Below are positions 4,514 through 22,172 of a stretch of DNA of 32,147 bases, piece by piece. The stretch comes from a virus (lineage: Duplodnaviria; Heunggongvirae; Uroviricota; Caudoviricetes), in IMG/VR virus record IMGVR_UViG_2537562172_000009, positions 1 through 32,147 of that record. The stretch is one strand, 5' to 3'. The number at the start of each line of letters is the position of its first letter. The stretch's first letter is position 1. The translations under genes were made by a program, and so were the position numbers. The notes under the pieces were generated by a model, which was not told the DNA's origin, ran no database searches, and worked only from the letters and a program-made list of their open reading frames with translations.

Positions 4514-6736
4514 TTGGCTGTTCAATTCGCTTATCCGTGGAACGTCCCACGGTCGGCAATCTCCAGCCCATACCTTACTTATGAGCAACAGCATCGCCGC
4601 GACCGTATGTTCGCGGCTTTGCTGCATGCAAAAAAGGTGCTTTCTCTCCAGCCCGACTGCGTGCGGTTAGATGTTTATCGCACTGCTGCGGTGCTGGAGC
4701 AAAATCAGGGTAGTCAACGAGCCAATGCATTTTTAATCAGCTTCTGCAAAAAGGCATTGCCGCGTCTTGAACTGGTCGCAAAAAAATACGAATGCGCTGG
4801 TATCAACAGCAAGGTATCAACCGCTGTTTTTGGAAGTCATTTTGATACTCAGCAAATGCAATATCTGTCGTCACGCATGGTTAATATGGTCGCCCGATAT
4901 AACCGTCTCCCGGACATGTCGCGCGCTGATGTTGACCTGTTGGCCGCTGATATTGCTAATTTCATTCGTGGTGAACTTGCCAACATTAATGACCACGGAT
5001 TCGGCGAGCTTAAAACGCTGTACACCTGGTATATTCGTGCTGGCTTTATTTCCCTCCAATTCAACGTTATCCCACCACATTGGGAGCGGGTTGAAAAAAA
5101 ATATGTCGGTGCGGATGAAATCGCACCGGCTATCGCCAAAATGTTTAACGATGGGTGGTGGCGCGGTCGTTTGCGCCGTGTAGCAGCTACGTGGCGCGAA
5201 CACCTGCAAATTGCAGTCGGCAACGTCAGTAAGAAAAAAAACACTTACGCGAGTAAAAACTGCGTGACTGACTGGCGTGAACAAAAGCGCCGCACTCGTG
5301 AATTTCTCAAAGGTCTGGATCTCGAAGACGAAGACGGCAACCGTATCAGCCTAATTGAAAAATATGATGGCTCAGTTGCTAACCCTGCGATTCGCCGCTG
5401 TGAGCTCATGACCCGCATTCGTGGGTTTGAAAACATCTGTAATGAGCTCGGTTATGTCGGTGAGTTTTACACTCTAACCGCGCCGTCAAAATATCACGCC
5501 ACGACTAAAGCCGGTTACCGTAACAGCAAATGGAGCGGTGCCAGCCCGGCTGACACGCAAAACTATCTAACCGGTATCTGGGCGCGTATCCGTGCCAAAC
5601 TACATCGGGAAGATGTCCGTATTTTCGGTATTCGTGTCGCCGAGCCCCATCACGACGGCACTCCACACTGGCACATGCTGATGTTCATGCTGCCGGAAGA
5701 TGTTGAATATGTTCGCTCCATCGTCCGTAAATACGCATGGAAAGAAGACCGCCACGAACTGAAAAGCGATAAATCCAAAAAAGCACGTTTCCACGCGGAG
5801 TCCATTGACCCGGAGAAAGGCAGCGCAACCGGCTATGTTGCTAAATACATTTCAAAAAATATCGACGGTTATGCTCTCGATGGTGAAACCGATGATGAAA
5901 GCGGTGAGCTGCTGAAAGAGACAGCCCCCGCCGTTTCAGCATGGGCTGCGCGCTGGCACATCCGTCAGTTTCAGTTTATTGGTGGTGCGCCGGTGACGGT
6001 TTACCGTGAGTTGCGTCGCCTCGCTGATACCGAAACCGCGCACGGTCTGAGCGTTGAGTTTGCCGCCGTCCATGATGCCGCCGACGCTGGTGACTGGGCT
6101 GGTTATGTTAATGCTCAGGGTGGGCCGTTTGTCCGTCGCGATGATTTACAGGTGCGCACACTGTATGAACCGCGTACCGAGCTTAATCAGTACGGTGAGG
6201 AAACGGTATGTATTAAGGGGGTCTACGATTCCTCCATAGGTGCAGGAAGCCCGATTTTAACCCGGCTCACTCAGTGGAAGATTGTTCCGAAGCGTGCTGT
6301 TGATTTGGCCGTTGACCTTCAGGACGGCAAAGCCGTCCCTCGGAGTTCTGTCAATAACTGTACGGGAAGCGAAAACGAGCCACCGGAACTTGATTTATCA
6401 AAACCGCTGAGTCGACGTGAAAAGCGAGAGCTGACAAATCGACTCAGGAAGAAAAAACCAGCGACAAGGCAAAAATTCACACACGGAAGGGATGAACAAA
6501 ACGACTCTATAGAAAGAACCATCGACGAAATACACCTGACCACTGGCGTAACGATAAGCCGGGGTGAAGCCCTGCACCTAATGGCGGGTGGCAAATGCTG
6601 CTTTGAAGGGAAATGGCTTAGAGGAACAGCCAATGGTGAGCTATTTAGAGCCGCGCAGCCTTACTCCGCCAAAGCTAAGAATATCCTTAAGCGAGTTGCA
6701 AAACTGGCAGAAACGGCAAAATTACCACGTGATTAA
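4514..6736 (+). CDS. A: replication initiation endonuclease (P2 gpA / 186 RepA family, HUH rolling-circle initiator)
   Basis: 740 aa; HUH-type metal-binding motif GTPHWHMLMF and active-site tyrosine motif ATGYVAKYISKN; follows the small early ORFs as in P2. Start as given is a TTG (4514) one codon after the upstream stop, with a G-run SD; the next in-frame ATG is 31 codons downstream. Confidence 0.88.
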   Translation: MAVQFAYPWNVPRSAISSPYLTYEQQHRRDRMFAALLHAKKVLSLQPDCVRLDVYRTAAVLEQNQGSQRANAFLISFCKKALPRLELVAKKYECAGINSKVSTAVFGSHFDTQQMQYLSSRMVNMVARYNRLPDMSRADVDLLAADIANFIRGELANINDHGFGELKTLYTWYIRAGFISLQFNVIPPHWERVEKKYVGADEIAPAIAKMFNDGWWRGRLRRVAATWREHLQIAVGNVSKKKNTYASKNCVTDWREQKRRTREFLKGLDLEDEDGNRISLIEKYDGSVANPAIRRCELMTRIRGFENICNELGYVGEFYTLTAPSKYHATTKAGYRNSKWSGASPADTQNYLTGIWARIRAKLHREDVRIFGIRVAEPHHDGTPHWHMLMFMLPEDVEYVRSIVRKYAWKEDRHELKSDKSKKARFHAESIDPEKGSATGYVAKYISKNIDGYALDGETDDESGELLKETAPAVSAWAARWHIRQFQFIGGAPVTVYRELRRLADTETAHGLSVEFAAVHDAADAGDWAGYVNAQGGPFVRRDDLQVRTLYEPRTELNQYGEETVCIKGVYDSSIGAGSPILTRLTQWKIVPKRAVDLAVDLQDGKAVPRSSVNNCTGSENEPPELDLSKPLSRREKRELTNRLRKKKPATRQKFTHGRDEQNDSIERTIDEIHLTTGVTISRGEALHLMAGGKCCFEGKWLRGTANGELFRAAQPYSAKAKNILKRVAKLAETAKLPRD

Positions 6737-6850
6737 TTTGTCTCTATATCATGAACATACATCACAAAACTGATCTTCATTTTTTCTTCCCATCTTTTGC
6801 CATTACGTGCTACTGTATAAACATACAGTATTTTTATTGGGAGGGATTTC

Positions 6851-7033
6851 ATGGTTGGGGAGCATTTCAGCCGGGCGCAGCAAAAGTGGGCTTGTGTGCA
6901 ATTCATCGCCGAGGTATCTCTGATTGCAAACTGCAAACCATCAGACCTAAAGCTTGCTCTGACTCTCATTGCTGACTTAGCAAATAGTGAAAATAATGAA
7001 ACCGAAGAAGGCATGTTTTATGAGGCTGAGTAG
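6851..7033 (+). CDS. small acidic hypothetical protein
   Basis: 60-aa ORF; strong SD GGGAGGGA 5-8 nt before the ATG; acidic C-terminus (SENNETEEGMFYEAE); internal repeat FIAEVSLIAN / LTLIADLAN; stop overlaps a perfect palindrome. Confidence 0.4.
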   Translation: MVGEHFSRAQQKWACVQFIAEVSLIANCKPSDLKLALTLIADLANSENNETEEGMFYEAE

Positions 7034-7053
7034 GTTATGTAACTAACCTACTC
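7028..7053. repeat. perfect 10-bp inverted repeat with 6-nt spacer
   Basis: GAGTAGGTTA-TGTAAC-TAACCTACTC; overlaps the stop of the small ORF; not followed by a T-run. Confidence 0.6.
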
Positions 7054-7067
7054 TGAAAAAACAATCA

Positions 7068-7094
7068 AACCGGCACCATGATTGCCGGTTTTTT
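7068..7094 (+). terminator. rho-independent terminator ending the early/replication transcript
   Basis: AACCGGCA-CCATGAT-TGCCGGTT followed by TTTT(ATGTGT): GC-rich core stem, 7-nt loop, U-run. Confidence 0.65.
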
Positions 7095-7194
7095 ATGTGT
7101 TCTATCAAAAGGATGGGGTCTGACATTCTCATCATCAGAATTGTGTTATTTTAGTGCAACTCATTCGTCGTTAGACATTGTAAGGGCAATGTAT

Positions 7195-7905
7195 ATGAAA
7201 CCAAGCACACACTGCGTTTATTGTGGTGTTCTCATGAACAGGATTGAAAATCACCCCCACTGCCGCTCAGTTGAACACATGATCCCGCAAGTTTCAGTCT
7301 CCATTCATAGAACCAACGGCGAAGGCGATTTCCATGTATGCAAAAAGTGCAATGCCGATAAAAGCCGAATTGACGAGGTATTGGGTGTCATTTGCCGCAT
7401 GGTTGGTGAGCACTCAACAGGCAGTTTCGATGCTATCAATAAATTCAAAAATGCTCTTAAAAGAAATGATTCAAAATTCCGCGAGGCATTCCAAAGTGTT
7501 AAACATACAGGAAGAGGTGCGCAGATAACCTTACCCCTTGAAGGCAAAGAGATTTATCGATATGGCTCGTGGTTAGCAAAGGGCGTCTTTTTCTTAGAGT
7601 ATGAGCAGTTGTTGCCGCCAGATAAATTAATCTGGGTAAATATCGTTCGCCATGATGAAGTAATGGCTATTAGAGACATGTATAGAAATCAGCGTGGTTC
7701 TGAAGCTTTTGAGGACTTGTCCAAAAACAGCAATGTGCCAAACATTAACGGGGAATCTTTCCTGATTGTTGGCCGTGAAGCTAAGGAAATGTTCATATGT
7801 TTCAATCGCGTAATGATGTTCCATATAAAAATATTAGATAAGTCATTCATTAATCAAAAAAAATGCAAAAAATCACTACTTATGCTTGATAAGAGAATTC
7901 GATAA
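7195..7905 (+). CDS. HNH-motif nuclease-domain protein with uncharacterised C-terminal domain (accessory)
   Basis: 236 aa from the ATG at 7195 (SD TAAGGG 8 nt upstream; the ORF-track start at 7078 lies inside the terminator loop). N-terminus carries CxxC (CVYCG), EH (SVEHMIPQ) and H-x-CxxC-N (HVCKKCNADK), the HNH/zinc-finger nuclease arrangement. AT-rich. Confidence 0.65.
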   Translation: MKPSTHCVYCGVLMNRIENHPHCRSVEHMIPQVSVSIHRTNGEGDFHVCKKCNADKSRIDEVLGVICRMVGEHSTGSFDAINKFKNALKRNDSKFREAFQSVKHTGRGAQITLPLEGKEIYRYGSWLAKGVFFLEYEQLLPPDKLIWVNIVRHDEVMAIRDMYRNQRGSEAFEDLSKNSNVPNINGESFLIVGREAKEMFICFNRVMMFHIKILDKSFINQKKCKKSLLMLDKRIR

Positions 7906-8093
7906 AAATTTGAGATTAGGTAGATGCGGTTTGGCATTTGTCGCATGCGTTGAACTCACCACTCTTTCTGTGGGTATCTATTCGTTGGTAGCCGGTAGCC
8001 TTATGTAAAGCCACGCGGTTTGCTTTTAGTGGAATAGTTTTCATTGATTATTGTAAGATTGAGATCTTTATCTTAAAGAGGATTTTGCTACGT

Positions 8094-9701
8094 ATGTCTG
8101 CACAAAGCATATCAAGCCTTTTGAAGGCTAATAAATGGATCGATACGAATGTAGGTAAGTTTGAGTTTAAAAAAGAAATTGGTGAAGGGGGCAATAGCAA
8201 CGTGTTCCTTTTTTCTAATTCAGGGCATGATTTTGCAATAAAATTCTTAAAGCCAAGTAAAGATCATAGAAAAACAGATAGGTTTAAAGATGAGTTTTTT
8301 TGTGTATCTCAAATGCCATCCAACAAATACATTGTACAATACTACCACTTAGATAAAATAACAATCGATGATGTTGATTATTACATCATTATCATGAAGC
8401 CATACGCTCGGTCCTTAAAAAAAGATTTTGCCAGTACAAACTCTGCTGAAGAATATGAACGCGATGTGCGGAAATTATTTAATCATTTATTTAATGGGTT
8501 AAGACATATTCATAGCCATGGCGTTATTCATAGAGATCTTAAGCCTGAAAATATTTTTATTGACAGTGCTACCGACTCTTATGTAATCGGAGACTTTGGA
8601 ATATCAAGATTCGATGATGAGTTTTTTGCACGTTTGTCCCAGACCAGAGAAAGTGAACGATTGGCAAATTATAAATTTTCCGCACCAGAACAGTCATCGG
8701 GAAATCATGAGATCACTGTACGTAGCGATATTTACGCGCTCGGTCAGATTATGCAATATTTTAGTACTGGAGATGTGAGCAAGGGCAACGGAAGAGAAAA
8801 ATTATCCTATAGTAATGTTAGCGAGTTTATTGCCATTCTGGATGATATTATAGGGAAGTGTATCATGCACAACCCCAACGACAGATTCTCTTCTTTGGAT
8901 GATATGGCTGAATATTATAAATCGAAACTTGAATCTAATAAAAGATTAAAAGAGGCCCAGTTTAGGCAAAAAGAAGAGTCGGAAATGTGGGGTTTCCTTC
9001 ATGCATTTGATGACGCAATAGTAAGATCTGTCCCCCATATAAATAGAGTGGAAAAAATCACTTCGGATTTAGACATTGAATTATTTCTTTCAAGCATTGA
9101 TGGCACTATTAGCACAGAAAACACAAAAGATTCACTCTGGATGATTAAGTCGGATGGTGGGGATCTAAACTACTACGGGTCAAAATTAAAGCAAGGCAAA
9201 TACTTTGAGATAAACTTTGGTGGGTTCATCACTGAAGTGAATATAGATTCAATTGATGTATATTATGATAGCCACTATCATCATAAAAACTTCTTCATAA
9301 TCATCATCAGTGGCATGCCTCCTTTCGAATTTAACGACATATCGGACTTATCAAAGAAAAAGATGAGAAGTAAAATAACCTCAAAAGATGATTATTGTAT
9401 TGAGTGGAATGGGTATTGTTTAGATCCTAACGATGTAAGAAATAAATACGTAAAAATTGAAGGGACAACATATAGGGTTAGTCACGAGGATTTCAAGGAT
9501 GTACATCGCTGTATAAAAAGAGATGCATTCCTTGTTGTTCCAACCGGTACACCATCATCACATATGAATGATCGGTCTGTTGCAACGGACCTAATAAATG
9601 CGTGCTTAACGAACCCAAATGGACTAGTTACAACAGATGTAGACCTTTATTTGAGAAGAATCAGGGACCATTATCAGTCTTGGATTCGTAACAGCTTGTA
9701 G
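8094..9701 (+). CDS. Hanks-type Ser/Thr protein kinase fused to an about 250-aa domain of unknown function (accessory)
   Basis: 535 aa from the ATG at 8094 (SD AAAGAGGA upstream; the TTG at 8085 is too close to it). Gly-rich loop IGEGGNSNVF, beta3 Lys in FAIKFLK, catalytic loop HRDLKPEN, DFG (VIGDFGIS), APE (FSAPE), subdomain IX DIYALG. Very AT-rich. Confidence 0.8.
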   Translation: MSAQSISSLLKANKWIDTNVGKFEFKKEIGEGGNSNVFLFSNSGHDFAIKFLKPSKDHRKTDRFKDEFFCVSQMPSNKYIVQYYHLDKITIDDVDYYIIIMKPYARSLKKDFASTNSAEEYERDVRKLFNHLFNGLRHIHSHGVIHRDLKPENIFIDSATDSYVIGDFGISRFDDEFFARLSQTRESERLANYKFSAPEQSSGNHEITVRSDIYALGQIMQYFSTGDVSKGNGREKLSYSNVSEFIAILDDIIGKCIMHNPNDRFSSLDDMAEYYKSKLESNKRLKEAQFRQKEESEMWGFLHAFDDAIVRSVPHINRVEKITSDLDIELFLSSIDGTISTENTKDSLWMIKSDGGDLNYYGSKLKQGKYFEINFGGFITEVNIDSIDVYYDSHYHHKNFFIIIISGMPPFEFNDISDLSKKKMRSKITSKDDYCIEWNGYCLDPNDVRNKYVKIEGTTYRVSHEDFKDVHRCIKRDAFLVVPTGTPSSHMNDRSVATDLINACLTNPNGLVTTDVDLYLRRIRDHYQSWIRNSL

Positions 9702-9920
9702 CCCGATGAGCAAAGTTAAGAATCAGCCAATCAATCCGGCAGCGTGAATGTTGGTTTTTTATGCCATTTTTCCGCCATTTCTCCATTTTCTAGCCATGCA
9801 TGCATCTGGTGCATGGTTTTGCATGCGTCAGTGCTGCCCGTTCCGTACGTGCGCCGCCAGAGCTGGCGCGGCTTCGGAGTGGTCATGCAATTGCATTAAA
9901 ACCGACCCATAAAGCGGGCA

Positions 9921-9939
9921 GGCGTGGCGGGGAAAGCAT
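9921..9939. other. cos site (cohesive-end sequence of P2/186 type)
   Basis: GGCGTGGCGGGGAAAGCAT followed by TGCGCGC, matching the 19-nt cohesive ends of 186 (and differing at 2 positions from P2's) as I remember them; located between the replication/accessory side and the portal gene, where cos lies in a P2 prophage. Confidence 0.6.
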
Positions 9940-10048
9940 TGCGCGCAGCACACACTTGCAATTTGATATTTTTGGTGTAAAAAATCGGTGTCAATGAGTA
10001 GAAGATGAAAAAATAATAACCAAAGGTTACTAAATCAAGGATGTGCCG

Positions 10049-10867
10049 ATGAAAGTTAGCTATGACGTTGTCATCAAAAGTGGTGATCAAGAAGTTGATA
10101 TGGAGTATGGCCTTGATACCCTCTCTGGAACGGCTGAGGTGACATGCATACTAGCAGAGGCAATACTCAGAAAAAAAATTATTAAGCGCCGCACTCATGT
10201 TAACCCTGCGCGAGCGGTTCTCAAACAAAGCTTTAAAAGTTCTTATGGTCAAAACTTCGACTTGATTGTTAATGAGCCGGAATTAGCTGCCGAATTAAAA
10301 AAAATGACCCGTTCTGTGTTCTCGGAAGTCATGGGGTATTTTATTTCTGAATCTCTATATCTGGAAACTAAGGAGCTATCTCCAAAAGCTGCAGGAATTA
10401 TTGAGGAGCTTGAGGAAATTGAAGATGAACTTATTGATCGTATCAGACAACCTTTGGTAAGGATGCATAGGATAAATCTTCAAAAAAACTTTGATGTTGA
10501 ACTTAACTATAAAAAACCTGCTGGCAAACAAAGAATAGCAAAGTTAGACACAATGACTGCTACAAACTTGACACAATCAAAAATAATGCCCGGTCAAGTT
10601 AATATTAACGCAGTTATTACTCGATTTAATGCGAGAACTGGAAATGGTAGGTTAGTTATCGAAGGTGAAGATGATACAGTAGCCTTTGGTTTTTACATGC
10701 CTTTAAAGGCTATACCCGCCGCTCAAAAAAGATTGGTCTCATTAAATTTACACAATAATAATGGCAGGCAAGATAACTACACATATCTAAAACTTACTGT
10801 TAGTAAAGTTGTAGTAAAAAGTGGTGATGTGGTGAAATATCTAATCCGTATGGTTGAAACTGTATGA
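10049..10867 (+). CDS. hypothetical soluble protein, first gene of a coupled two-gene accessory cassette
   Basis: 272 aa from the ATG at 10049 (AAGGA 7 nt upstream); AT-rich; near-identical short motif close to both termini (YDVVIKSGDQEV and KVVVKSGDVVKY); stop overlaps the next start (ATGA). Confidence 0.6.
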   Translation: MKVSYDVVIKSGDQEVDMEYGLDTLSGTAEVTCILAEAILRKKIIKRRTHVNPARAVLKQSFKSSYGQNFDLIVNEPELAAELKKMTRSVFSEVMGYFISESLYLETKELSPKAAGIIEELEEIEDELIDRIRQPLVRMHRINLQKNFDVELNYKKPAGKQRIAKLDTMTATNLTQSKIMPGQVNINAVITRFNARTGNGRLVIEGEDDTVAFGFYMPLKAIPAAQKRLVSLNLHNNNGRQDNYTYLKLTVSKVVVKSGDVVKYLIRMVETV

Positions 10868-11589
10868 GAAAGGTGTTGCTGTCTTCGGCTGGCGTGATTG
10901 TAGCTGTGTGCGCCTTGTATTACTTCAACTTCGGAGTAAACGGACATTTATCCAGCAAGACTGATGTTTGGGCGCAGTTTGGTGATTATTTGGGTGGTGT
11001 CGTCAACCCTATACTTTCATTTATTACAATTTACCTCCTTATAAATTCAATAAAACTTCAAAGGGAGGCTAATTCCAGCCTGATCGATGAAGTAAAAAGG
11101 CAAGAATCTTTAGAAGAGTATAAAAAATTTGAAGTGAGATTTTTCCATTTGGTTGAATGTCAGGATTCTAACTTTGAAAGGTTTTGTGTTCAAGTTGGTG
11201 ATGTTGATGGACAAACTGACGGGGTGGTCGAAGAATTTACAAGTGGTGCAGCCGTAACTTATCTTGAAGATAATATTGTAATTTTAGTTAAAGCCAAGGT
11301 GAAAAAAGAGGTAATAACAAAGTGGTTAAGTGAAGTGGATGCTAATGATTGCATTTTTTCAGTGGTGCGTCGCTTTTATTTGATTGTGAAGTTGATAGAT
11401 AATTGCGGGGTTGAACGGGAAGATTATTATGAAACATTAGTTAACTTAACTGACATAAAAATAATATCTTTAGTTGCAATGGCTTGTACATACTACGAGT
11501 GGGATATCGTAAAGTATATCCATGACAGTAAAATACTTGAACGAGATGGAGTTAAAGAGTTTGTTTCGCAAATATCCACTCACGATTGA
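10864..11589 (+). CDS. hypothetical membrane protein (2 predicted N-terminal TM helices), second gene of the cassette
   Basis: 241 aa; hydrophobic segments LLSSAGVIVAVCALYYF and GDYLGGVVNPILSFITIYLLINSI followed by a charged soluble domain; ATGA overlap with the upstream gene. Confidence 0.6.
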   Translation: MRKVLLSSAGVIVAVCALYYFNFGVNGHLSSKTDVWAQFGDYLGGVVNPILSFITIYLLINSIKLQREANSSLIDEVKRQESLEEYKKFEVRFFHLVECQDSNFERFCVQVGDVDGQTDGVVEEFTSGAAVTYLEDNIVILVKAKVKKEVITKWLSEVDANDCIFSVVRRFYLIVKLIDNCGVEREDYYETLVNLTDIKIISLVAMACTYYEWDIVKYIHDSKILERDGVKEFVSQISTHD

Positions 11590-11590
11590 G

Positions 11591-11609
11591 AGCCGCCATG
11601 CTGGCGGCT
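11591..11609. terminator. hairpin between convergent genes (cassette membrane gene and Q)
   Basis: AGCCGCCA-TGC-TGGCGGCT, a perfect 8-bp stem, in the 30-nt gap between two convergent stops; no clear U-run on either side. Confidence 0.45.
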
Positions 11610-11619
11610 AGAGTGGTGA

Positions 11620-12666
11620 TTATTCCGGGTTATCGAGGGTGTACTCTTTGAACCTGATGACCTCCATGCCGAGCCAGTCGTTTACCTCCCTGAACCTGTC
11701 CTGTAGCGGCGACAGCTCATTGCGCACAAATACCTTTGCCACCTTCTCAACGTCACCGAGTGAACCGATATTCTCGGGCTTGCCGCCCATGAGCTGGAAC
11801 GGCACGCGGTGCGCGTCCATCAGGTCGGCGGCGCTGGCTTTCTTAATGTTGAAAAAGTCATCCTTTGTGGCGACCTCGCTCAGTGGCACGATTTTGATGC
11901 CGTCCGGTTTTCCGCCGGGGGCGTAGAAAAACAGGTTCTTAAAGTTGCCGAGTCCCTTCGAGTTACGCATCGCCTCGCGCAGCGATTCGACGTCGGTCGC
12001 ACTTTGCGCCGGGTCAGTCACATACATGATGTAGCCTGCGTGCGCGCCGTTCTGATAATACTTGCGGCGGAACAGCGTCGCGGATTCATTCAGCCAAGCG
12101 GAATTAAGCGCGCTGAGATATTCCGGCAAACCGTAAATCTCCTGATTAATGTCGGGCTCCAGCAGGTGAAACACGGTATCAGGCGCGAACTCGTGCGGCT
12201 GGGTGAAGTTTTCCACAAACCAGAAAATCGAATCGTCGACTCCGCGTCGGGTGTATTTGGCTGGCGAGGCCAGCAGTTTGATTAACTGGCCGGTGACGCT
12301 GTGGCGCTGCTCAAGAAAGGCGTTACCGAACACCAGATAATCGAGCGCAAAGCGGCTGAAATCCTGACGGGATAACAACGGGTGCGGAATGTAGGTGCTC
12401 GCGAGCACGTTACGCTTAACATAAATTGGCGAGCTGTGATGCACGGCAGAGCGCAGGCTCTTTGCCAGCCCTGAGAAGCTGACCGGCGGCTCGTACCATT
12501 TGCCGTTACTGATGCATTCGACGTAATCCAGAATGTCGCGCTTATCGAGTACCGGCACCGGCTCGCCGAAGGTGAACGCTGTCGTTTTTGGCGGTGCGCT
12601 GGCGGTCAGTTGTTGTGGTTTGCTGGCCTTTTGTGCGTTGGCTTTACGGGATTTTTGTTTACCCAT
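11620..12666 (-). CDS. Q: portal protein
   Basis: 348 aa; minus strand; immediately downstream of the large terminase gene and next to cos; size and position match P2 gpQ. Confidence 0.85.
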   Translation of the reverse strand: MGKQKSRKANAQKASKPQQLTASAPPKTTAFTFGEPVPVLDKRDILDYVECISNGKWYEPPVSFSGLAKSLRSAVHHSSPIYVKRNVLASTYIPHPLLSRQDFSRFALDYLVFGNAFLEQRHSVTGQLIKLLASPAKYTRRGVDDSIFWFVENFTQPHEFAPDTVFHLLEPDINQEIYGLPEYLSALNSAWLNESATLFRRKYYQNGAHAGYIMYVTDPAQSATDVESLREAMRNSKGLGNFKNLFFYAPGGKPDGIKIVPLSEVATKDDFFNIKKASAADLMDAHRVPFQLMGGKPENIGSLGDVEKVAKVFVRNELSPLQDRFREVNDWLGMEVIRFKEYTLDNPE

Positions 12667-19500: not shown

Positions 19501-19930
19501 CGCCGTGCCGCAGCTCAGAAACAACCCCGATATGTTGCGCCTTTTCGCCGATAACGGGCATACCGATTCCCGGCTTGCCAGCTCACTCTCGTTTGAAAAG
19601 GTGTACGTACTGAATGTGGTGGTGACCGACTTCACCGGCGACCTCGATTTGATATTCGTGCCGGTGCAGGCGTGGCTGCGTGAACATCAGCCGGACATTA
19701 TGACCACCGACGACGGGCGGGAAAAAGGATTCACCTGGATTATTGATATCAATAACGATGATTCGCTCGATATCAGTATCAGCCTGAGGCTCACCGAGCG
19801 CACGCTCGTCAACGAGGTCGACGGCGCACTGCATGTCAGTTATGCCCCTGAGCCGCCCCCGCCTGAGCCGGTGACGCGCCCGGTTGAGCTGTACGTTAAC
19901 GGCGAGCTGGTGAGTAAGTGGGATGAGTGA
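19454..19930 (+). CDS. R: tail completion protein R
   Basis: 158 aa; position and size match P2 gpR; start overlaps the 3' end of lysC (an alternative ATG lies 9 nt downstream). Confidence 0.8.
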   Translation: MNSMQKHKSLRKALINAVPQLRNNPDMLRLFADNGHTDSRLASSLSFEKVYVLNVVVTDFTGDLDLIFVPVQAWLREHQPDIMTTDDGREKGFTWIIDINNDDSLDISISLRLTERTLVNEVDGALHVSYAPEPPPPEPVTRPVELYVNGELVSKWDE

Positions 19931-20372
19931 GTTAACCGCACTGCAGGAGCGCCTTGCCGGTCTGATTGCCAGCCTGTCACCGGCGGCGCGGCGGCAAATG
20001 GCCGCTGATATTGCGAAGCGCCTGCGCACCAGTCAGCAACAGCGCATTAAGCGCCAGCAGGCACCCGACGGCACCCCGTATGCCGCCCGTAAACGCCAGC
20101 CGGTGCGGAGCAAGAGAGGTCGTATCAAGCGCGAAATGTTCGCCAAACTGCGCACCAATCGCTTTATGAAAGCCAAAGGCAGCGACAGTGCGGCGGTTGT
20201 GGACTTTACCGGCAAGGTGCAGCGCATGGCGCGGGTGCATCAGTACGGCCTAAAAGACCGGCCAAACCGCAACAGCCGGGATGTGCAGTACGAGGCGCGC
20301 CCGCTGCTGGGTATTAACGCTGATGATGTTTCTGTTATTAATGATATTATCATTGGATCTTTATCAAAATAA
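19923..20372 (+). CDS. S: tail completion / virion morphogenesis protein S
   Basis: 149 aa; overlaps the R stop; position and size match P2 gpS. Confidence 0.8.
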   Translation: MSELTALQERLAGLIASLSPAARRQMAADIAKRLRTSQQQRIKRQQAPDGTPYAARKRQPVRSKRGRIKREMFAKLRTNRFMKAKGSDSAAVVDFTGKVQRMARVHQYGLKDRPNRNSRDVQYEARPLLGINADDVSVINDIIIGSLSK

Positions 20373-20397
20373 TAGTGTTAAAAGGTAGCGGCGAAAA

Positions 20398-21441
20398 ATG
20401 GGTGGTGCATATTTATTCGATATCATAAAGGACATGCTGCCAGTTTTATCAGGCCTACTAGGAGTGTTGGGTATTCTCAATGTGTTTAAAACTTCGAATA
20501 ATCGCCTTAGCTTTTGGGGATGGCTGGCTGTTTTTGTAATTGTGATCTCCACGATTGCAACACTGCTATTAGCGAAAAAGGAAAAAAATGATAATGAGCG
20601 GGAAAAGATACAACTCCAAAACAAAATAGATAACATATTAAGAGACGTAGCCAAGGCTCGTGAGCCAATTGGGGAGGTTTCCATAACCTATTGGTCGCTG
20701 CTTCCTGATTCGAATCAACTGGTTCGAAAATACAAAGACTATCTTAATGAAAAAGCAAGAGGTGAGGTCGAAAATTTTTCATTCCATAACCTAACGAAGA
20801 CTAATAAAGATTATTTCGGGACTACAATCGATTTGGATGGGAAGCTCGCCGTTTTTAGCATTGATGAAAAAAACAAGTATTGGCCCTCGGGTTCTTTCTC
20901 TGAAATCGGTCTTTTGGCCTCAAATTTTTCAATAATGCTCTGTATCAATTCCAAACACACTAATGCTAAGGATGTGCGTTTTATCATAGGGGCAAGGAAC
21001 AACTTAGATTGGTGTGCTCTTGCCTTGCTGCCAAGAACAAGTGATATCTTTTATGACGTCAAAAAAGATAAAATTGGATTGGCAACAACCATTACATATG
21101 ACAAAAAATGGGTGTATTCCAATGGCGTTATTTCCTCGGTTAGAGATTTCTTCGGTTCGGATGTCTTTTTTGTTCTTCCCTCTACAGATTCTCGATTTTT
21201 GAATGACTATCTAAAGTCCATAGGAGCACCTCAGACGCTTATAGAGTCAAATAAAATAAAGTCCGAGATCATTGCTGGTATGAGCACAGAGTCAGTGAGC
21301 GTCAAAATGGGGGATGGCCAACGTTTTAATATCTCAGGAGAACATCTAAAAAAATATAACTCGAAAGATGGCAGAACTTTTTTCTATATCAAAATGCCTT
21401 TGTCAGAAAAAGAAGTTAGTGAGCTCGAGACAAAAAATTAG
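20398..21441 (+). CDS. hypothetical membrane-anchored protein (2 TM + coiled coil + about 250-aa domain), moron in the S-V slot
   Basis: 347 aa; AT-rich; hydrophobic segments LPVLSGLLGVLGILNVF and WLAVFVIVISTIATLLLA, then a Lys/Glu/Asn-rich stretch; sits where P2 carries orf30 (my recollection). Confidence 0.6.
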   Translation: MGGAYLFDIIKDMLPVLSGLLGVLGILNVFKTSNNRLSFWGWLAVFVIVISTIATLLLAKKEKNDNEREKIQLQNKIDNILRDVAKAREPIGEVSITYWSLLPDSNQLVRKYKDYLNEKARGEVENFSFHNLTKTNKDYFGTTIDLDGKLAVFSIDEKNKYWPSGSFSEIGLLASNFSIMLCINSKHTNAKDVRFIIGARNNLDWCALALLPRTSDIFYDVKKDKIGLATTITYDKKWVYSNGVISSVRDFFGSDVFFVLPSTDSRFLNDYLKSIGAPQTLIESNKIKSEIIAGMSTESVSVKMGDGQRFNISGEHLKKYNSKDGRTFFYIKMPLSEKEVSELETKN

Positions 21442-21486
21442 CACGGACCATTAGTATAGTTTGATTCTGGTTTGTGTCATGCCTCA

Positions 21487-21524
21487 CAGATAGGAAGAAA
21501 GTTGTTCATCACTTCTCCTATCTG
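21487..21524. repeat. hairpin-forming inverted repeat between the moron and gene V
   Basis: CAGATAGGA(A)GAA ... CTTCTCCTATCTG: a 9-bp stem plus a 3-bp extension with one bulge and an about 12-nt loop; ends about 12 nt before the V start codon. Confidence 0.5.
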
Positions 21525-21536
21525 CATTCTGTCCGT

Positions 21537-22172
21537 ATGAATACTTTAAACAATATCCAAGAACTGGCCCGCGCGATTCGCAACCTCATCCGCTCAGGCG
21601 TGGTGACGGAAGTCGACACCGTAAAGGGGCTGTGCCGCGTACAAAGCGGCGGGATCCAGACTACATGGCTGAACTGGCTGACCACCCGCGCCGGTCGTTC
21701 GCGGACGTGGTGGGCTCCCTCGGTCGGTGAGCAGGTTCTGCTGCTGGCAATCGGTGGCGAGCTTGATACCGCTTTCGTGCTGCCGGGTATTTTCTCCGAC
21801 GATAACCCCGCCCCGTCTGCCTCGGCGGATGCGTGGCATGTGGCTTTCCCTGATGGTGCGGTCATTGAGTACGAGCCCGAGGCCGGCGCGCTGACGGTCA
21901 GCGGTATCAAAACTGCCGACGTGACGGCATCGGAGTCCATCACTGCAACCGTACCGCTGGTACTGGTGAAAGCCTCGACCAGTATCACCCTCGACACCCC
22001 GGAGGTGATTTGCACCAATAAGCTGACGACAGCGACGCTTGAGGTACAAAAAGGCGGCAAGATGAGCGGCAATATCGAACATACCGGCGGGTCACTGTCG
22101 TCTAATGGCAAGGTACTCCACACCCATAAACACCCGGGCGACAGCGGCGGGCAAACGGGGGCACCGTTATGA
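21537..22172 (+). CDS. V: baseplate assembly / spike protein V
   Basis: 211 aa from the ATG at 21537, the size I recall for P2 gpV; precedes W-J-I. Confidence 0.85.
   Translation: MNTLNNIQELARAIRNLIRSGVVTEVDTVKGLCRVQSGGIQTTWLNWLTTRAGRSRTWWAPSVGEQVLLLAIGGELDTAFVLPGIFSDDNPAPSASADAWHVAFPDGAVIEYEPEAGALTVSGIKTADVTASESITATVPLVLVKASTSITLDTPEVICTNKLTTATLEVQKGGKMSGNIEHTGGSLSSNGKVLHTHKHPGDSGGQTGAPL

Follow-up and report, generated by a model that had tools for sequence, protein, structure and literature searches.

A cos-split accessory hotspot with candidate anti-phage modules between genes A and Q of a P2-like Escherichia coli prophage

We analysed a 32,147-nucleotide stretch of viral DNA (IMG/VR record IMGVR_UViG_2537562172_000009, positions 1 to 32,147; hereafter the window). 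The window represents an Escherichia coli prophage that is P2-like and of the 186/PSP3 type. Consistent with this, the Prokaryotic Genome Annotation Pipeline (PGAP) context comprises int, CI, A, Q, P, O and capsid genes. Our subject is the interval 6737–11619, which separates the replication gene A from the portal gene Q. The interval lies beside a functional-type cos and has variable content amid conserved flanking core genes. It is the known cos-proximal gpA–gpQ hotspot of P2-like prophages; the phenomenon has been published and this arrangement catalogued. Prophages that are 100% identical over the interval occur in the complete E. coli genomes O141:H4 P13-6, ETEC1716 and LR-21-1. The first two are porcine enterotoxigenic E. 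coli (ETEC)-type strains. The features are as follows, with casA and casB being labels coined in this analysis.

4514–6736, + strand: gene A (gpA), replication; Pfam Phage_GPA, E = 2e-130; PGAP 'replication endonuclease'; conserved left boundary of the hotspot.
6811–6830, + strand: LexA (SOS) box, TACTGTATAAACATACAGTA, with an exact CTGT-N8-ACAG at 6813–6828; upstream of tumA.
6851–7033, + strand: tumA, SOS-inducible antirepressor-type gene, 60 amino acids; 90% identity to PSP3 TumA; phrog_1993, E = 6e-30.
7062–7097, + strand: strong intrinsic terminator after tumA (9-bp stem and T-run); 5' copy of a 36-nt direct repeat.
7195–7905, + strand: HNH-like gene, 236 amino acids; phrog_31193, E = 3e-151, aligned from residue 40 onward in the long open reading frame (ORF).
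8094–9701, + strand: Hanks-type Ser/Thr protein kinase gene, 535 amino acids; Pfam Pkinase, E = 4e-30.
9728–9763, + strand: degenerate 3' copy of the terminator repeat, directly before the cos block.
9794–9946, no strand: conserved cos region; cohesive ends at 9921–9939, cleavage boundary 9920/9921.
10049–10867, + strand: casA, first gene of a pair, 272 amino acids; predicted N-terminal alpha/beta-plus-helical domain and C-terminal OB-fold.
10864–11589, + strand: casB, 241 amino acids; two predicted N-terminal transmembrane helices; the start overlaps the casA stop (ATGA).
11620–12666, − strand: gene Q, portal; Pfam Phage_portal and PGAP; conserved right boundary of the hotspot.

We consider it highly likely that these features make up four units that are evolutionarily independent, and probably transcriptionally independent too, and that the cargo among them is putatively anti-phage. 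Unit (i) would be a conserved SOS induction unit, in which the LexA box leads to tumA and then to the strong terminator. Unit (ii) would be right-end cargo that has replaced tumB/dinI with two stacked single-gene modules, the HNH-like nuclease and the Hanks kinase. Unit (iii) would be the native cos site. Unit (iv) would be a self-contained left-end operon pairing an OB-fold protein, CasA, with an AbiC-like membrane protein, CasB.

The base composition of the interval sets it apart. The GC content was 38.3% within 6737–11619 and 53.7% in the remainder of the window, and every 4883-bp window outside the interval had at least 47.5% GC. For windows of 500 bp the mean was 0.382 inside and 0.538 outside (Mann–Whitney p = 3e-24). 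In sliding windows, GC content was ~0.50–0.54 across gene A, 0.33–0.46 between 6750 and 11600, and 0.53–0.62 from gene Q onward. At third codon positions, GC was 0.30–0.42 for the four cargo genes and 0.71 for Q and P. A preliminary description of this DNA had pointed to an AT-rich interval between A and Q, and the composition is indeed far from uniform. That description had also taken everything from the A stop to the Q stop to be both accessory and AT-rich. This was correct for the cargo on either side of cos. It did not apply to positions 6737–7039 (40.6% GC), which belong to the phage core, or to the cos block at 9755–9949 (~195 bp), where the GC content was a normal 55.4%. Since the cos block is not AT-rich, there are two AT-rich cargo blocks, one on each side of the native cos. 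We take the low GC content of the cargo to reflect horizontal origin.

The position of cos could be defined precisely. The 19-mer GGCGTGGCGGGGAAAGCAT at 9921–9939, described previously as cos-like, matches at every position the cos feature at the left end of PSP3, which is annotated as 'identical to 186 cos'. In alignments, the right end of PSP3 corresponded to 9794–9920 (127 bp) and the left end to 9921–9946; the last position of the linear PSP3 record maps exactly to 9920. As had been proposed, cos splits the region, which places one cargo block at each end of the virion DNA. The genes named in the preliminary description were all present, on the + strand and in the order given. It had been reasoned further that any co-expression across cos would be specific to the lysogen. 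On entry, P2 DNA closes into a circle through cos, and it replicates in circular form. Thus, the two sides are joined whenever the genome is transcribed, and not just in the lysogen; they are apart only in the virion. On this established P2 biology the lysogen-specific element of the argument falls away.

We assign positions 6737–7039, on DNA homology, to the conserved core of 186/PSP3-type phages rather than to the accessory cargo. The LexA box is kept in PSP3 and in the prophage of E. coli S3, and L021, a viral contig, has an equivalent box upstream of its tum. The small ORF expected in this position was present, but the true gene is at 6851–7033 and not the ORF at 6751–6975. The PSP3 TumA annotation reads 'similar to 5' end of 186 tum; UV induction of prophage'. 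Beyond 7039, the DNA is no longer homologous to PSP3 or the S3 prophage. At this point the tumB/dinI start codon survives (7037–7039), 4 nt past the tumA stop, with a TAA directly after. The retained ATG and TAA (7037–7042) mark the exact left breakpoint at which cargo replaced dinI. No DinI ORF was found here, so the DinI-like TumB of the 186/PSP3 SOS module is absent. The terminator that follows contains a bidirectional hairpin at 7067–7091 (dG = −13.7 kcal/mol, z = −2.8) and matches the pre-cos terminator of prophage S3. It insulates tumA, which argues against any transcriptional unit extending from tumA across cos.

The right-end cargo, from 7040 to ~9760, occupies the place of tumB/dinI. 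For the HNH-like gene we favour 7195 as the most likely start of translation, because the phrog_31193 alignment begins at that Met and the alternative ATG at 7078 is inside the terminator hairpin. The DNA of the HNH module, with its upstream sequence included, probably spans 7098–7905. A CxxC...EH..P...CxxCN..K signature is kept in 18 homologues, with E27-H28, C49, C52, N53 and K56 invariant. Family matches of the protein were weak (PtuB, E = 5e-5; phrog HNH, E = 0.006; Pfam HNH_5, E = 0.11).

Downstream, the kinase translation contains GxGxxG, AIK, HRDLKPEN, DFG and APE; all of the catalytic motifs are present. The best PADLOC matches were PD-T4-6 (E = 9e-36) and mad6 (E = 3e-35), and MkoA and Stk2 also scored. 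With the NCBIfam MAD6 model the kinase scored 104 bits against a cut-off of 460. The C-terminal domain of ~235 amino acids had no Pfam match and fell into no known family. The spacer between the HNH-like and kinase genes is 188 bp. We considered whether it could be a relic of a second pre-cos region; there was no homology and this was ruled out. In LR-21-1 (NZ_AP027487.1, 1155346–1162763), an IS3-family insertion sequence (IS) and ISKox3 interrupt the otherwise identical island. The IS3 element is in or beside the kinase gene, which suggests inactivation of the cargo in one lineage.

The HNH and kinase cargo is bracketed by the two copies of the 36-nt direct repeat (7062–7097 and 9728–9763; 83% identity). 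The second copy has a weakened hairpin (dG = −9.0, z = −0.5), but in prophage S3 this element is intact (dG = −12.8, z = −2.2). The degenerate state of this copy, between the kinase gene and cos, makes some read-through into casAB physically plausible. Prophage S3 and L021 each have just one copy of the pre-cos terminator. The simplest reading of the duplication is that it is a recombination scar of cargo insertion at that sequence. The repeat could also mediate cargo loss.

The left-end cargo (9947–11590) is an autonomous two-gene operon, and homology to PSP3 resumes at 11591, the start of the conserved DNA flanking Q. A structural model of CasB (predicted local distance difference test, pLDDT, 87) has helices at residues 2–23 and 33–104; in addition to the two membrane helices, it shows a long helix and a domain built of helices. 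The motif W..FGD..GG..NP is invariant in the family. Direct family assignment of CasA and CasB, using Pfam, NCBIfam, PADLOC and a PDB sequence search, gave nothing significant. Conversely, a CasB profile searched against 1.84 billion representative proteins retrieved 6,263 relatives. When ten distant relatives were scanned, eight carried Pfam putAbiC ('putative phage abortive infection protein'), seven of them above the cut-off. Alignment of the CasB profile with these putAbiC carriers using hhalign gave a probability of 99.9% (E = 1e-32, 226 columns), with the comparison set drawn from CasB's own hits. Hence, we classify CasB, by profile similarity, as a divergent AbiC-like protein of the putAbiC superfamily. 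A Foldseek search of CasA against viral structures returned uncharacterised proteins only. A literature search on DUF7946/DUF7947, and on the protein accessions in main texts, returned nothing. The intergenic gaps gave sub-threshold chance matches to Rfam and trivial two-copy repeats with Tandem Repeats Finder. Retron-like or ToxI-like non-coding RNAs and repeat arrays in the gaps were thereby ruled out.

The comparison across P2-like phages confirmed that gene content varies between A and Q. It also showed that the cargo modules occur apart from one another. Homologues of the HNH-like gene, at 64–69% identity, lie directly before cos and without the kinase in three P2-like viral contigs (L003–L005). 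A variant at 85% identity has the same position, again without the kinase, in four more E. coli genomes. One of these is Ecol_545, in which the order is tumA, dinI, small ORF, HNH, cos, DUF2188 and Q. Conversely, contigs L021 and L022 have full-length kinase homologues (80–82% identity) between a 186-type tum and cos, without the HNH-like gene. In L021 (5430–6001), a full-length tum under LexA control is followed after 74 bp by the kinase gene, and the gap contains no canonical terminator. The L021 kinase could thus be SOS-induced; in the window, the strong terminator shields the cargo from the promoter of tumA. We considered whether HNH and kinase could form a two-gene system, like the nuclease-plus-kinase 'Bandua' of P4. 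This was rejected because each occurs alone, and the two are found together in just 3 of 5,426 complete E. coli genomes. All three modules, HNH, kinase and casAB, likewise coincide in just 3 of these 5,426 genomes.

The casAB operon is similarly independent of its surroundings. At 99.6% identity, it is present with a different right end (dinI and small ORFs) in eleven more complete E. coli genomes. In prophage S3, casAB at this level of identity lies behind an intact terminator, which argues against a need for read-through from the right-end genes. Variants at 58–66% identity fill the same cos–Q slot in strains D3 and A30, and the right-end contents of S3, D3 and A30 are again different. The two genes were adjacent at 7 of 7 viral loci and at 16 of 17 loci in species-representative genomes; they are always paired unless a contig end intervenes. 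P2 prophages are a minority among the genome loci, and the others include loci in Pseudomonas, Chromobacterium, Bordetella, Achromobacter, Janthinobacterium, Methylobacter and Vibrio. In Chromobacterium, casAB is an isolated two-gene islet beside valS. In each of the genomes examined, the operon had a higher AT content than its flanks. Among its neighbours outside phages are an Mrr-type nuclease, a D12 methyltransferase, a 1,732-amino-acid AAA_16 protein, a DUF927 protein and an integrase.

These distributions are at odds with the earlier idea of five genes forming one accessory set. The LexA box and tumA are core and end in a strong terminator, while HNH, kinase and casAB each occur alone. 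A single five-gene island is therefore ruled out. As the modules reassort independently, neither a functional link nor read-through across cos is needed to account for them, and their co-occurrence points to neither. The four cargo ORFs are intact and their motifs are conserved across homologues at 38–95% identity, which indicates purifying selection.

To describe occupancy on the two sides of cos, we used 80 viral contigs (L042–L121) picked solely by an exact match to the cos 19-mer; the contigs are not phylogenetically independent. The A–cos distance was 515–4342 bp and the cos–Q distance 159–3221 bp. Among the 69 contigs that include Q, the cos–Q distance was ~180 bp, and so empty, in 44, 384–492 bp in 11 and 1.3–3.2 kb in 14. 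None of the 14 loci with 1.3–3.2 kb spacing matched casAB; the cos–Q compartment has diverse cargo of its own. A small cos–Q insert recurs; in at least one prophage, that of Ecol_545 (L162, 2998–3222), it encodes a DUF2188 protein of ~75 amino acids, and 11 of the 69 loci have a spacer of such size (384–492 bp).

Both sides could be measured in 43 contigs. Where the A side exceeded 1 kb, the Q side was at least 1 kb in 3 contigs and below 1 kb in 27. Where the A side was 1 kb or less, the corresponding numbers were 9 and 4. Cargo on the two sides was thus anticorrelated (Fisher p = 2e-4, or 6e-4 after removal of duplicate size pairs, with no phylogenetic correction), and we treat this as a lead rather than a result. 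The anticorrelation fits a packaging-size limit or alternative insertion sides. With 3.2 kb on one side and 1.7 kb on the other, the present prophage is among the minority with both sides filled (3 of 43). Joint loading at so few loci is a further point against one unit spanning cos.

We infer from the domain types that the cargo confers an anti-phage function. This draws on the PADLOC matches of the kinase, the link between CasB and putAbiC, the OB-fold of CasA, and the Mrr, D12, AAA_16 and integrase neighbours outside phages. In the lysogen, each cargo module would have a promoter of its own driving its expression, and would protect host and prophage from other phages. The kinase may act like PD-T4-6/Stk2-type abortive-infection kinases and phosphorylate host or phage proteins on infection. 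CasA could sense phage nucleic acid or protein and so release CasB, leading to membrane damage and an aborted infection. The HNH protein might be an effector nuclease; its role is the least certain.

Several observations weigh against such a reading. For the CasB link, Pfam putAbiC was matched by 0 of 44 CasB-family members at E ≤ 1, and the connection is transitive, with a comparison set chosen from CasB profile hits. Neither CasA nor CasB had a PADLOC match, save a weak one between CasB and ZorB (E = 0.002) over the membrane region only. For the HNH-like protein, Pfam HNH_5 and HNH both gave E values of at least 0.1, below significance, and the family profile matched no HNH structure in the PDB. 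All PADLOC matches of the kinase are limited to the kinase domain (residues ~20–297), where many models score similarly. The kinase is therefore a possible rather than an established PD-T4-6 orthologue, and the matches could equally reflect generic kinase similarity. A promoter scan found 20 sites, compared with 15.5 ± 4.3 in shuffled sequence, and no convincing promoter for any module. Some of the non-phage neighbours of casAB are housekeeping genes. In P2-like loci, the divergence of casA and casB roughly parallels that of Q and P; within this lineage casAB may have been in place for a long time and not recently swapped in. Finally, part of the cargo of the hotspot is non-defensive, for example partition systems and toxins (Rousset 2022, PMC9122126).

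Of the other explanations, the one that fares best is that casAB, other cargo, or both, serve in superinfection exclusion or in toxin-antitoxin-like addiction instead of infection-triggered abortive defence. As a membrane protein, CasB might for instance keep DNA from entering, or casAB might make the prophage more stable. In favour of this, CasB is small and has two membrane helices, and casAB has overlapping stop and start codons and is mobile as a unit, including as the valS islet of Chromobacterium. Moreover, the OB-fold aside, the pair has no recognisable sensor or enzyme domain. Conversely, CasB appears to belong to an AbiC-like superfamily annotated as abortive infection, although that annotation is itself putative. 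With 272 and 241 amino acids, CasA and CasB are both bigger than expected of classical type II toxin-antitoxin proteins, and casAB has defence-type neighbours in several genomes. On balance we think this explanation unlikely, while giving it some weight.

It is also conceivable that the cargo is unrelated to defence, being either lysogenic-conversion or virulence cargo or non-functional hitch-hiking DNA. The identical prophages in porcine ETEC-type strains (O141:H4 P13-6 and ETEC1716) would fit this explanation, as would the inclusion of a toxin among the non-defence hotspot cargo (Rousset 2022, PMC9122126). Interruption of the kinase by IS elements in one of three genomes would fit it too. 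However, no secretion or toxin domains were found, the conserved and intact reading frames speak against inert DNA, and kinase, HNH and AbiC-like domains are typical of defence systems. We regard this explanation as very improbable.

A functional unit made of the genes on both sides of cos, joined by read-through and co-expressed as a property of the lysogen, has the shared + strand, the degenerate terminator copy and the weakness of the promoter-like match upstream of casA (9 of 12 positions) in its favour, and is very unlikely given that the modules are found separately in related phages and casAB alone in non-phage loci.

Our preferred reading, of four independent units with putatively anti-phage cargo, can be extended, although we hold the extension tentatively and see it as possible rather than probable. 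In this extension, casAB would be an unnamed and widespread two-gene abortive infection system, with an OB-fold sensor of phage nucleic acid and an AbiC-like effector. Separately, cos would split the hotspot into compartments that are rarely both filled, and packaging limits or recombination at cohesive ends might drive cargo exchange.

The hotspot itself is well documented, and our finding rediscovers a known feature of P2-like phages: an AT-rich variable region around cos that is a reservoir of anti-phage genes. Among 18,150 E. coli loci, Rousset 2022 (PMC9122126) reported 1,650 arrangements of the gpA–gpQ region beside cos, described the region as a hotspot and validated several of its systems. 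A row of Table S5A in that work lists WP_000232648, WP_001276027, WP_000868916 and WP_001233394 with two small ORFs. These accessions correspond to tumA, the kinase, casA and casB of a 100%-identical prophage. Vassallo 2022 (PMC9519451) identified the same site as P2 defence hotspot #1 and discussed packaging limits on cargo. Moura de Sousa 2026 (PMC13586616) confirmed the hotspot across 1,511 P2 elements. The sections of the hotspot papers available to us do not include the cargo of this prophage among the systems tested. The residual value of the present analysis lies in three intact candidate defence modules with precise boundaries, and chiefly in the OB-fold and AbiC-like pair, which is spread across Proteobacteria in and outside phages. 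The two cos-flanking compartments, seldom both occupied, bear on cargo exchange and on limits of capsid size.

Two further features of lower GC content were seen elsewhere in the window. A second AT-rich island at ~20250–21500 (39% GC) contains an ORF at 20398–21441 on the + strand. Its product of 347 amino acids has hydrophobic N-terminal segments and matched no Pfam or PADLOC family. The ORF sits between a tail-completion-type gene (19923–20372) and the next late gene (21474–22172), which we take to be the position of P2 orf30. Such a position would place it in the hotspot among the tail genes that Moura de Sousa 2026 (PMC13586616) mentions. The second feature is a DUF2511 gene at 1244–1654 on the − strand (GC 0.41–0.45). 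It is a small accessory gene in the integrase-proximal slot, between integrase and the CI repressor.

Compared with known systems, the interval is like the P2 hotspot, and like the classical P2 tin/old region, in its A–Q position by cos, its variable content and its short systems with defence-type domains. The published work treats A–Q as one hotspot; here, cos splits it into two compartments, and it is unusual for both to be filled. The SOS unit resembles the 186 Tum and PSP3 TumA–TumB module in having a LexA box and TumA directly after gene A. It differs in that the TumB part is gone, with a terminator and the HNH and kinase cargo instead. The HNH-like protein is weakly similar to Septu PtuB over the HNH motif (E = 5e-5), but its C-terminal 170 amino acids are unrelated. 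No PtuA-type ATPase lies beside the HNH-like gene here, in L003–L005 or in Ecol_545, and with so weak a match Septu was ruled out. Zorya was likewise ruled out, since the CasB match to ZorB covers a membrane segment only and there is no ZorA. The kinase shares the Hanks domain of PD-T4-6 (Vassallo 2022), Stk2 and the MAD6 component of MADS, and is, like the Ser/Thr kinase defence PD-T4-6, a single-gene module, here in a P2-like prophage. Unlike those proteins, it combines this domain, to which the similarity is confined, with a 235-amino-acid C-terminal domain that belongs to no known family. CasB shares with AbiC and putAbiC (PF16872) the N-terminal membrane hairpin and the W.FGD.GG..NP motif. 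Lactococcal AbiC is a single-gene system. By contrast, CasB has no direct Pfam match to putAbiC and is always paired with an upstream OB-fold gene.

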